Part shown: piece by piece, positions 17,085 through 17,940 of the stretch
Layout of the letters: every line of letters starts with the position of its first letter
How positions within the stretch are numbered: position 1 is the stretch's first letter
Source of the DNA: a virus
Lineage: Duplodnaviria; Heunggongvirae; Uroviricota; Caudoviricetes
Virus record (IMG/VR): IMGVR_UViG_2700989161_000006
Strand: one strand, 5' to 3'
DNA: 24,501 nt
Notes under the pieces: model-generated
Seen by the model: only the letters and a program-made list of their open reading frames with translations
The model's database searches: none
What the model was told of the DNA's origin: nothing
Translations under genes and position numbers: made by a program

Positions 17085-17599
17085 GCATAAGAGAACTAAA
17101 CCTCACCAAAGAACAGCACGATTGGCTGAATGGCTGGCTTGAACTGTGGGGTGCATGGGTTTACTCAGGTCGCCTGGAAAAGCGCATGAGCAGCGTAATA
17201 GCGAAGTTCATGGAGAGCGTAGAGCCGGGAAGAGTTATGACAAGGCCAATGTGTAATGATGATGATGGAATGTTGATTTCTCAGGTCGTCGATTCCGTCA
17301 TGTACATTGACAAGAAAGCCTTTGGCATCCTCCTCAGCTACTACGCTCATGGTTCATCTAAGCGAGCAATTGCATCCTACTATCACGCGACTGCAAAGCC
17401 ACGCAAGATGTGTGGGCGTGGTGGTGAGGGATGGAGAAAACCTTCACTGGCAACCTGTAGAAATGAAATTGACGACATCCTGAAAGCGTCGTTATTTGTT
17501 TTGTACCAACCAATGCAAAATGCTTTCAAAATGCGTAAACGTGTTGAGAAAGTTAAGCATGTTGCCGTTAAAAGCCTTGACATGCAATTAGCCATTTAG
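17081..17599 (+). CDS. Q: Late-gene antiterminator Q
   Basis: 172-aa ORF at the end of the nin region, immediately upstream of a strong sigma70 promoter (pR') and the lysis genes; Cys-containing region consistent with a Q zinc-binding domain. Confidence 0.6.
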   Translation: MSIRELNLTKEQHDWLNGWLELWGAWVYSGRLEKRMSSVIAKFMESVEPGRVMTRPMCNDDDGMLISQVVDSVMYIDKKAFGILLSYYAHGSSKRAIASYYHATAKPRKMCGRGGEGWRKPSLATCRNEIDDILKASLFVLYQPMQNAFKMRKRVEKVKHVAVKSLDMQLAI

Positions 17600-17607
17600 C
17601 CATAATT
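17577..17607 (+). promoter_or_regulatory. Late promoter pR' (Q-utilisation region)
   Basis: -35 TTGACA (17577-17582), 18-19 bp spacer, -10 CATAAT/ATAATT (17601-17607), overlapping the Q stop codon. Confidence 0.45.
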
Positions 17608-17616
17608 AGAGGGTAA

Positions 17617-17661
17617 GCTGCCGTTAGTGACTCTTAAGTTGCAACGGTGGCTTTTTTTATT
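17617..17661 (+). terminator. tR'-like intrinsic terminator
   Basis: gctgccgtt (17617-17625) pairs with aacggtggc (17642-17650), two G-U; followed by UUUUUUUAUUU. Large 16-nt loop makes this moderate. Confidence 0.45.
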
Positions 17662-17662
17662 T

Positions 17663-17737
17663 GGGTCAGTCGTATAAAGGTCATTACGGAAGGCTGTTAA
17701 CCTTCTTATCGTGGTTCGAGTCCACGCTGTCCCGCCA
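17663..17737 (+). tRNA. tRNA-like element, possible tRNA-Asn (GTT), imperfect
   Basis: T-arm CGTGG-TTCGAGT-CCACG, acceptor GGGTCAG/CTGTCCC with one T-T mismatch, discriminator G plus CCA, anticodon stem GAAGG/CCTTC with loop CTGTTAA; D-stem only 3 bp. May be a functional phage tRNA or a pseudo-tRNA. Confidence 0.4.
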
Positions 17738-17742
17738 AACAT

Positions 17743-17818
17743 GCTGGTTTAGCTCCAATGGTAGAGCAGTCGCCTTGTAAGCGAATGGGTAGCGGTTCAA
17801 GTCCGTTAACCAGCACCA
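17743..17818 (+). tRNA. Phage-encoded tRNA-Thr (anticodon TGT)
   Basis: 76-nt cloverleaf: acceptor GCTGGTT/AACCAGC (7 bp), D-arm GCTC-CAATGGTA-GAGC, anticodon stem TCGC/GCGA with loop CTTGTAA, T-arm AGCGG-TTCAAGT-CCGTT, discriminator A plus CCA. Confidence 0.75.
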
Positions 17819-17905
17819 TAACTGAGCCGTAGCCACTGGCTATCCTGAATTCATCAGTGATAGTTACGCTGCGGCCTTCTACACATGACCTTCGTGAAAG
17901 TGGGT

Positions 17906-17940
17906 GGCAGGAGGTCGCGCTAACAACCTCCTGCCGTTTT
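17906..17940 (+). terminator. Intrinsic terminator between the tRNAs and the lysis genes
   Basis: ggcaggagg (17906-17914) / cctcctgcc (17927-17935), perfect 9-bp stem, followed by GUUUU. Confidence 0.55.

Follow-up and report, generated by a model that had tools for sequence, protein, structure and literature searches.

An Asn(GUU)-Thr(UGU) tRNA cassette in the late leader of a mosaic lambdoid prophage

Organization of the late control region

The window analyzed here, a 24,501-nucleotide stretch of DNA (IMG/VR record IMGVR_UViG_2700989161_000006), belongs to a lambdoid prophage of mosaic make-up that is inserted at thrW in Escherichia coli. Two tRNA genes lie behind the gene for the late antiterminator Q, the late promoter and its terminator, and ahead of the lysis genes (Table 1). 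This placement agrees with a sequence-only reading of the same DNA, which had set two tRNA-like elements between a Q-dependent promoter and the lysis cassette.

Table 1. Features of the late control region and lysis cassette (window coordinates)
Feature	Position	Strand	Evidence and details
Late antiterminator Q gene (Q21 family)	17081..17599	+	Pfam Phage_antitermQ, E = 1.3e-25; Q homologue in Sf6 is gene 59
Late promoter pR'	17577..17606	+	-35 TTGACA (17577-17582), 18-nt spacer, -10 CATAAT (17601-17606)
Late leader (qut region, intrinsic terminator tR')	17613..17662	+	Stem 17615-17653; U-tract 17652-17662 (U7-A-U3)
tRNA-Asn(GUU) gene	17663-17737	+	ARAGORN; Rfam RF00005; CCA encoded
tRNA-Thr(UGU) gene	17743-17818	+	ARAGORN; Rfam RF00005; CCA encoded
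Strong conserved hairpin directly 3' of the cassette	17826..17875	+	-30.2 kcal/mol, z = -4.8, 0/200 shuffles; common to lambda
Second GC-rich hairpin of terminator-like form, with GUUUUG after it	17906..17940	+	-24.8 kcal/mol, z = -3.1
Holin gene S (opens the protein-coding part of the late operon)	18061..18384	+	Pfam Phage_holin_3_1, E = 2.4e-30
Endolysin gene	18368-18844	+	Follows the holin; compare Sf6 genes 60-63
Rz gene	18841-19278	+	Pfam Rz, E = 8.1e-37; compare Sf6 genes 60-63

The late promoter matches the consensus at 11 of 12 positions in a promoter scan, and Sf6 and phage L have an annotated promoter at the aligned position. In the window, the spacer contains the stop codon of Q (17597-17599), which, at the level of a consensus match, bears out the earlier suggestion of a strong promoter overlapping the end of Q. 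Judging by homology with the 'aRNA' of phage 21 and with annotated start sites, transcription would begin at about 17613.

The terminator that had been proposed to precede the tRNAs was likewise recovered. It folds at -21.1 kcal/mol (z = -4.5), and none of 200 shuffled sequences was equally stable; a simple terminator scanner overlooked it solely through its long loop. It matches the phage 21 terminator base for base from TAAGCTGCCGTT onward, is annotated as tR' in both Sf6 and phage 21, and aligns in position with the lambda 6S terminator. Its U-tract ends at the base preceding tRNA-Asn. A promoter of the tRNAs' own was considered and rejected: apart from pR', a scan of positions 17000-18400 gave a single weak site, which lies within Q, and the interval from tR' to the tRNAs contained nothing resembling a promoter. 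When positions 17500-18100 were searched permissively with Rfam for other RNA families in the leader, only the two tRNAs came back.

Downstream of the cassette the leader is of the lambda type. The second hairpin is identical in lambda, where it lies upstream of gene S, and it may correspond to a second terminator of the lambda late leader. A recurrent mosaic breakpoint is found at about 17880, just past the first of the two hairpins. Hidden protein cargo was also considered. The sole open reading frame in 17819-18060 (17857-18009, 50 amino acids, GTG start) has no Pfam match and falls in a stretch nearly identical to the non-coding late leader of lambda, so the earlier view that no protein cargo is held at this site stands.

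Structure and identity of the two tRNAs

ARAGORN called both elements on the plus strand, at exactly the boundaries that had been read from the sequence. The Rfam model RF00005 (gathering score 29) matched each over its full length (1-71/71), with 55.3 bits (E = 1.3e-9) for tRNA-Asn and 61.5 bits (E = 2.7e-11) for the well-formed tRNA-Thr. Within the whole window ARAGORN found only three tRNAs, none of which is tRNA-Lys. In E. coli genomes, PGAP labels the upstream element tRNA-Asn. For recognition by the cognate synthetases, the identity elements are G34, U35, U36 and G73 in tRNA-Asn and G1-C72, C2-G71, G35 and U36 in tRNA-Thr, and all of them were found in the two sequences. These results support the view that both elements are genuine tRNA genes bearing the anticodons named previously.

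Both genes depart in places from the canonical form. The acceptor-stem mismatch and short D-stem noted earlier in tRNA-Asn are a U4-U69 pair and a D-stem of 3 bp that U13-U22 closes, and its variable loop has 4 nt. In tRNA-Thr, the anticodon stem contains a G27-A43 mismatch together with G39-C40-G41.

The departures in tRNA-Asn raised the question of decay. An alignment of the Asn family comprised 22 distinct sequences, in which 14 of the 21 stem pairs show changes on both sides and all four stems are kept by compensatory substitutions. The covariation score was 0.677, against 0.186 for shuffled alignments and at most 0.165 for controls with slid partners; 93.1% of cells were paired, against at most 49.8% with partners slid. 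Because the search pattern fixed the anticodon loop and T-loop, the informative part of these values is the stems only. U13-U22 is invariant in 22 of 22 relatives and G73 is present in 21 of 22. Since it is invariant across the relatives, the odd D-stem is best regarded, on this alignment, as a trait of the lineage rather than as damage.

That the upstream element is a decaying pseudogene, kept only by its linkage to a functional tRNA-Thr, is accordingly an extremely improbable reading. The U4-U69 mismatch, U13-U22, the 4-nt variable loop and an Rfam score below that of tRNA-Thr would fit it, but a score of 55 bits is well over the gathering score, and compensation extends through all four stems of a family in which U13-U22 does not vary. 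Moreover, U4-U69 survives in two relatives (L069 and L123) that carry compensatory changes at the adjacent pairs 5-68 and 6-67, and 52 of 120 IMG/VR matches are base-for-base identical. With the GUU anticodon and G73 also intact, the decayed tRNA that had been offered as an option for this element was rejected.

The Thr lineage is also conserved in structure. A compensatory change from G5-C68 to U5-A68 occurs in 4 IMG/VR copies, and six Thr(UGU) genes show no variation at G1, C2, G71 and C72 or at G35 and U36. Recent capture of the pair from the host was rejected as well, with tRNA-Asn only 59% identical to asnT and tRNA-Thr 66% identical to thrU.

Relation to known phage tRNA cassettes

The cassette is already known: it is annotated in phage 21 and Sf6 and is called routinely by annotation pipelines. 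Positions 17655-17825 are 100% identical to the phage 21 (AJ237660) and Sf6 (AF547987) sequences, and over 17550-18060 the identity to Sf6 is 97.3%. Both phages have the two genes in this order, separated by the same 5 nt and placed as in the window right after the pR' leader terminator and ahead of the lysis genes; in Sf6 the promoter, qut, terminator and both tRNAs have all been annotated. The window differs from them only in its mosaic context. Its Q protein is 81% identical in amino acids to that of phage 21, near the promoter its leader is of Sf6/L type, and downstream it has the lambda-type leader with S/R/Rz where phage 21 has a pinholin and a SAR-endolysin. Cassettes of the same kind are carried by BTP1, SPN9CC, Bas106 and other Lederbergvirus and lambdoid phages, that of the Salmonella prophage BTP1 being about 97% identical to the window's. 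In total, 181 phage records contain the cassette, and 369 of the 5,426 complete E. coli genomes carry it at 95% identity or more.

The Stx phage 933W carries ileZ-argN-argO, which serve codons rare in E. coli, between its Q/pR'/tR' region and the late genes that follow. The site resembles that of the window in lying behind Q, pR' and tR' of a lambdoid prophage. However, the tRNA species differ, and in 933W the stx toxin genes come next, whereas the window has no protein cargo.

More distant pairs were found in P1/P7, as an Asn-Thr tandem, and in N4, as an Asn...Thr set. As in the window, tRNA-Asn comes before tRNA-Thr(UGU), with the same anticodons and a spacing of a few nt. The Thr genes of P7 and N4 form one lineage with that of the window (78% and 83% identity, respectively), and all have G39 where the host has U39. 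In contrast, the P7/N4 Asn gene belongs to another lineage (56-59% identical), and the P7 gene retains U39 where the window has C39. The setting differs too, the P7 pair lying in the C1-repressed ban operon and the window pair in a late leader predicted to be Q-dependent.

Proposed role in late translation

The pair probably represents two functional phage tRNA genes that are transcribed as part of the Q-dependent late transcript, excised from it, and used as an added supply for ACA and AAY codons. The analysis shows what the tRNAs are, that their structure is conserved, where they lie and what they are homologous to; Q dependence, processing, charging and the codon-supply benefit are inferred. 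In a lysogen, pR' would be active, but little tRNA would be produced because transcripts would halt at tR', whose U-tract stops one base before tRNA-Asn. After induction, Q would modify RNA polymerase at pR', and the modified polymerase would pass tR', both tRNAs and the downstream hairpins and go on to the genes for lysis and the virion. The two tRNAs, in which CCA is already encoded, would then be cut out by the host's RNase P and 3' processing enzymes and charged by AsnRS and ThrRS. The added tRNA may in this way raise the capacity to decode AAC/AAU and ACA during late protein synthesis.

With nothing resembling a promoter between tR' and the tRNAs and a terminator that abuts tRNA-Asn, expression should need read-through. 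In BTP1, both tRNA genes have been counted with the highly expressed loci, and they have been described as immediately preceding the lytic operon. The authors of the phage L study put forward the same codon-supplementation idea, and left undecided whether the tRNAs are cut out of the late mRNA or possess a promoter of their own.

Codon usage gives moderate support to a benefit in supply. In the late genes of Sf6, ACA occurs at 17.3 per 1000 codons as compared to 5.5 in E. coli genes, ranking third of 61 codons by both excess and ratio, and Asn codons occur at 48-50 per 1000 as compared to 35.5. ACA is decoded by a single-copy minor host tRNA. E. coli has four tRNA-Asn genes, so there is no obvious need for extra Asn supply. 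By ratio, AGA, AGG and ATA are also among the codons most enriched in the Sf6 late genes, a further likeness to 933W. At three loci a tRNA-Gly(UCC) takes the partner's place, and GGA, the codon it reads, is 2.3-fold enriched.

Codon demand was also tried as a predictor of which phages carry the cassette. The comparison of Sf6 with lambda was favourable, lambda having no cassette and values of 8.2 (ACA) and 35.8 (Asn) per 1000, but phage 21 and P22 broke the correlation. Phage 21, which has the cassette, uses ACA at 12.5 and Asn codons at 37.7 per 1000, while the virion genes of P22, which lacks it, stand at 12.8 and 54.1. Carriage thus does not track demand across these four phages, and the codon argument is only moderate because P22 and lambda are without the cassette and its presence does not follow demand.

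Alternative explanations

That codon demand fails to explain which lambdoid phages have the cassette is also a point in favour of counter-defence. Here the window tRNAs would act as nuclease-resistant stand-ins for host tRNAs cut by enterobacterial anticodon-arm nucleases, their late synthesis sustaining late translation; we regard this as unlikely. The validated targets of the PARIS nuclease AriB are tRNA-Lys(UUU) plus tRNA-Thr(UGU), which are prime targets, and tRNA-Asn(GUU), which is a secondary one (PMC12409363), so the window encodes two of the three species. In E. coli tRNA-Lys, U39→A abolishes AriB cleavage and A41→C strongly reduces it. Both window tRNAs differ from their host counterparts at 39 and 41, around the 40|41 cut site and the U36-A-A-U39 motif: positions 39-41 read UCA in host tRNA-Thr and GCG in the window's, and UCC and CCU, respectively, in tRNA-Asn. 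U39→G is common to the Thr(UGU) genes of T5, N4 and P7, T4 alters C40, and the Asn and Thr(UGU) pair recurs in the unrelated coliphages P1/P7, N4 and T5. The T5 variants of tRNA-Lys, tRNA-Thr and tRNA-Asn jointly neutralize PARIS; both its tRNA-Thr(UGU) and its tRNA-Asn(GUU) resemble those of the window in having 39/41 substitutions that flank the AriB cut site, and its Thr anticodon arm (GC-CUUGUAA-GC) is nearly the same. T5, however, is virulent and has a tRNA-Lys variant among some 24 tRNAs, whereas the window is from a temperate phage with only two cassette tRNAs, no tRNA-Lys and a putative resistance. The primary AriB target is thus missing, and a Lys partner was found in 0 of 66 close cassettes. 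T4, with tRNA-Thr(UGU) only, remains blocked by PARIS until the T5 tRNA-Lys is supplied (PMC12409363). Where the partner does vary, it may be tRNA-Gly(UCC) or the 'Leu(UAA)' gene of phage L, neither of which is an AriB target. Furthermore, the substitutions at 39 and 41 are weak evidence for resistance, because position 39 of the Asn family is split evenly between C (11/22) and U (11/22). Three close Asn relatives (L069, L077 and L125) have the host-like U39-C40-C41, and the Asn gene of P7 presents UAAUC|A, the best AriB motif. A rule that all phage copies avoid U39 is therefore false for the Asn family and for P7's Asn. Other nucleases were weighed too. HepS of the prophage Gifsy-1 cleaves tRNA-Thr species, UGU included, but the anticodon loops of the window tRNAs are identical to the host's, and consequently no evasion of loop cutters such as colicin E5 or HepS is expected. 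The likeness to the target list was, moreover, spotted after the fact. A broader proposal would join the Asn(GUU) and Thr(UGU) cassette found in temperate phages of the lambdoid and P22-like kinds to the P1/P7 and N4 pairs as a Q-timed counter-defence module, in which variants without U39 and with an altered position 41 resist PARIS-type AriB and perhaps other Thr/Asn tRNases. It is speculative, and we judge it distinctly unlikely.

It is very improbable that the cassette brings no translational benefit at all and is either a mobile mosaic module or a set of RNA-processing signals that detach the terminator leader from the late mRNA. Recurrent recombination breakpoints at the cassette edges (about 17650, 17820 and 17880), its pairing with various Q genes and lysis cassettes, and the very stable hairpin directly after it are all compatible with such a role. 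On the other hand, lambda has the same downstream hairpin without tRNAs, and purifying selection is seen on the anticodon, the identity bases and the compensated stems. A role confined to a cleavage site or a recombination hotspot would not be expected to bring selection on such tRNA-specific features. Late supply of functional tRNAs remains the preferred reading of the locus.

Significance of the cassette

The cassette is a correct re-discovery, real but ordinary, and matters little as found. It neatly illustrates the moron/tRNA slot that lies behind the lambdoid late promoter. As to its role, demand does not explain carriage, and recent work has made the same two host tRNA species known as PARIS nuclease targets. 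In Sf6, BTP1 or Bas106 the cassette offers a cheap test bed for codon supply versus immune evasion. If counter-defence were true, tRNA-based immune evasion would reach small temperate phages with two tRNAs, beyond the large virulent phages of the T5 type.

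Two tRNA Genes in the Phage Late Leader

Across the whole window ARAGORN called three tRNA genes. Two of them form a tandem separated by five bases, as a sequence-only reading had proposed, and each was matched end to end by the Rfam tRNA model (gathering score 29), at whole-window E-values between 1e-9 and 1e-11. Besides these, a permissive Rfam search of 17500-18100 found no family. The upstream element, previously read as possibly tRNA-Asn(GUU), proved to be just that. Its odd features had been described accurately: a U4-U69 mismatch interrupts the acceptor stem and the D-stem has three pairs, closed by U13-U22, while the T-arm is canonical and CCA is encoded. 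The variable loop has four bases. The tRNA-Thr has a G27-A43 mismatch and is otherwise regular.

Features of the window and of related loci
Feature	Coordinates	Strand	Support
proB/proA	157-2612
tRNA-Thr(CGT)	2727-2802	+	ARAGORN; 71.8 bits
Integrase	2817-3977	-
Antiterminator Q	17081-17599		Pfam E 1.3e-25
Late promoter	17577-17606		TTGACA-18-CATAAT
Predicted terminated leader (start expected near 17613)	~17613-17662		Homology to phage 21
tR'-like hairpin, then U7-A-U3	17615-17653		-21.1 kcal/mol, z = -4.5
tRNA-Asn(GTT)	17663-17737	+	ARAGORN; Rfam 55.3 bits
tRNA-Thr(TGT)	17743-17818	+	ARAGORN; Rfam 61.5 bits
Stable hairpin	17826-17875		-30.2 kcal/mol, z = -4.8
Terminator-like GC hairpin; with GUUUUG, to 17940	17906-17935		Identical in lambda
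Phage P7 Asn-Thr tandem	L129 2425-2578
Phage N4 tRNA genes	L130 2337-2586
Phage L Thr-like copy	L131 689-760 = MW013503 37918-37989		No ARAGORN call

The alternative that the upstream element is a decayed tRNA did not survive comparison with its relatives. A pattern scan of IMG/VR gave 120 loci, 66 of which had a copy close to the window's Asn gene; 52 copies were identical to it. The search pattern fixed the anticodon loop and T-loop, which are therefore uninformative in the alignment. Among 22 distinct Asn sequences, 93% of cloverleaf cells were paired (35-50% with slid partners), both-sided changes occurred in 14 of the 21 stem pairs, and the covariation score was 0.677 against 0.186 in shuffles. 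U13-U22 was unpaired in all 22 and is thus a lineage trait. Together, the covariation, the compensated pairs and this invariant position exclude decay. The U4-U69 mismatch is specific to the lambdoid sub-lineage and survives in relatives that carry compensatory changes at the adjacent pairs; the discriminator base is G in 21 of 22. In close copies of the Thr gene a single compensated pair was seen: G5-C68 had become U5-A68 at four loci.

Late Promoter, Terminators and Expression

The Q gene product is 81% identical to that of phage 21, and its stop codon lies inside the spacer of a near-consensus promoter, which agrees with the strong promoter noted earlier. The hairpin that follows, already suspected to be tR'-like, aligns with the 6S terminator of lambda, and the terminator's end is the base preceding tRNA-Asn. 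By homology to phage 21, with its annotated start site and a 50-nt "aRNA" named in an old record, transcription should start near 17613, and termination without Q would leave a hairpin RNA of ~50 nt. The equivalent short RNA of Stx phages is reportedly, from one study, a regulatory sRNA.

From ~17820 on, the window follows lambda's non-coding late leader almost base for base, in a stretch that takes in two hairpins and the S, R and Rz lysis genes. With the terminator also aligned to lambda, the tRNA pair is seen to replace ~150 bases of the lambda leader. The very stable hairpin directly 3' of tRNA-Thr has no Rfam match and is conserved in the lambda leader, which lacks tRNAs. Upstream of S, the second terminator-like hairpin completes a pair of such structures bracketing the tRNAs; segment 17906-17940, present in the window and in lambda, is absent from phage 21. 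The tRNA-lysis gap holds a single ORF (50 aa), which matched no family; protein cargo is therefore absent here, as first supposed.

A promoter scan turned up nothing promoter-like between tR' and the tRNAs. The simplest model is that for all genes behind the late promoter pR'. In the lysogen, transcripts from pR' would stop at tR'. After induction, Q-modified polymerase would pass tR', and RNase P and 3' processing enzymes would excise both tRNAs for charging. The cassette of Salmonella prophage BTP1 is ~97% identical; a transcriptome study of BTP1 placed the two tRNA genes among the highly expressed loci and the start of the lytic operon directly after them. Given the high spontaneous induction of BTP1, this fits late expression but is no proof of it.

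Distribution, Origin and Mosaic Behaviour

The cassette is already known, annotated and widespread. A 511-base stretch around the tRNA pair has matches in 181 phage records, one of them Shigella phage Sf6 at 97.3%; the Sf6 record annotates a late promoter, qut site, tR', tRNA-Asn and tRNA-Thr with the note "similar to phage 21". In phage 21 itself the tRNA segment is 100% identical, both in the fragment AJ237660 of 1999 and in OL657228, the complete genome, which annotates pR', a Q-binding element, start site, terminator and two tRNAs in the window's order. The phage L paper mentions tRNA genes at this location in some P22-like phages, citing those for Asn and Thr in Sf6. Of 5,426 complete E. 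coli genomes, 369 also carry the cassette, with the labels tRNA-Asn and tRNA-Thr from the NCBI pipeline.

Recent copying from host genes is ruled out by the low identity to E. coli asnT (59%) and thrU (66%); the Thr gene is closer to those of N4 (83%) and P7 (78%). More distant Asn relatives with the same D-arm are found in small sets and large tRNA arrays of other phages. This unusual arm (GUAU-AAAGGUUA-UUAC, with U13-U22) occurs in IMG/VR loci L014, L025, L032, L040, L048, L051, L076, L086 and others, some on contigs >150 kb with arrays of 10-20 tRNA genes, which suggests that the lambdoid Asn gene derives from a phage tRNA pool rather than from the host. P7 has an Asn-Thr(UGU) tandem with a two-base spacer in its C1-repressed ban operon. 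Genes for Asn, Ser(UGA), Thr(UGU) and Pro tRNAs are present in N4 but missing from the annotation of its record; between P7 and N4 the Asn genes share 92% identity.

Among the 66 close loci, Asn is paired with Thr(UGU) in 60 and with Gly(UCC) in three (IMG/VR loci L016, L046 and L122), and it has no partner in three, so the second slot is exchangeable. In phage L the window's Thr gene has a diverged counterpart, shorter by 4 nt, behind the same Asn gene; this copy carries the annotation tRNA-Leu(UAA) and may derive from the Thr gene through an anticodon shift or decay. Recurrent breaks in homology to the window fall at ~17650 on the left side and, on the right, at ~17820 or ~17880 (just after the stable hairpin), indicating that the cassette has been combined with various Q genes and lysis cassettes.

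The third tRNA gene, Thr(CGT), marks the prophage left end. It adjoins the integrase downstream of proB-proA, at the E. coli thrW attachment site used by P22-like integrases. Several E. coli genomes match the window from base 71 onward only. Query 1-4200 hit a median of 10 places per E. coli genome, so some part of it is repeated there.

Possible Roles: Codon Supply or Immune Evasion

In late genes of Sf6 the frequency of ACA is 17.3 per 1000 codons, compared with 5.5 in a set of 39 E. coli genes and 1.1 in four with high expression, and the codon ranks third of 61 by both excess and ratio; AGA, AGG and ATA head the ratio list. Asn codons reach 48-50 per 1000 (35.5 in E. coli). Gly(UCC), the alternative partner, reads GGA, which is 2.3-fold enriched. 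The ACA bias extends to the window's own phage genes (14-15 per 1000). Codon demand makes the tRNAs plausible helpers. The codon-usage comparison suggested by the sequence-only reading held for enrichment in Sf6 but did not predict carriage, as P22 and phage 21 illustrate: the cross-check is not clean, and demand does not explain which phages carry the cassette.

Codon use in virion genes (per 1000 codons)
Phage	Cassette	ACA	Asn
Sf6	yes	17.3	49.6
Phage 21	yes	12.5	37.7
P22	no	12.8	54.1
Lambda	no	8.2	35.8

The cassette could instead serve immune evasion, through Asn and Thr variants that resist AriB, the tRNA nuclease of the PARIS system. AriB cuts between positions 40 and 41, beside a U36-A-A-U39 motif; cleavage is abolished by U39 to A and reduced by A41 to C. 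T5 variants of Lys, Thr and Asn tRNAs together neutralise PARIS. The window tRNAs are two of the three target species and each departs from its host counterpart at positions 39 and 41; their pairing recurs in P1/P7 and N4. A further enterobacterial nuclease, HepS of the Gifsy-1 prophage, also cuts tRNA-Thr species, and host tRNA-Thr(CGU) is itself reported as a minor target of AriB and HepS.

Nucleotides 39-40-41 of host and phage tRNAs
tRNA	Source	39-40-41
Thr(UGU)	E. coli thrU	U C A
Thr(UGU)	Window, 21, Sf6	G C G
Thr(UGU)	T5, N4, P7	G C A
Thr(UGU)	T4	U G A
Asn(GUU)	E. coli asnT	U C C
Asn(GUU)	Window, 21, Sf6	C C U
Asn(GUU)	N4	C C A
Asn(GUU)	P7	U C A
Asn(GUU)	T5	G U U

We nevertheless consider evasion of AriB unlikely. 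The cassette lacks tRNA-Lys, the main target, and T4, with Thr(UGU) alone, is still PARIS-sensitive (PMC12409363). Several Asn relatives keep a host-like arm, position 39 is evenly split between C and U in the Asn family, and P7 Asn even carries an optimal AriB motif. Neither of the alternative partners, Gly(UCC) and "Leu(UAA)", is among the targets of AriB, and the anticodon loops of the window tRNAs are unchanged. Moreover, the match to the target list was spotted after the fact. For the function of this late-leader tRNA pair, codon supply is the likelier reading and immune evasion the less likely one.
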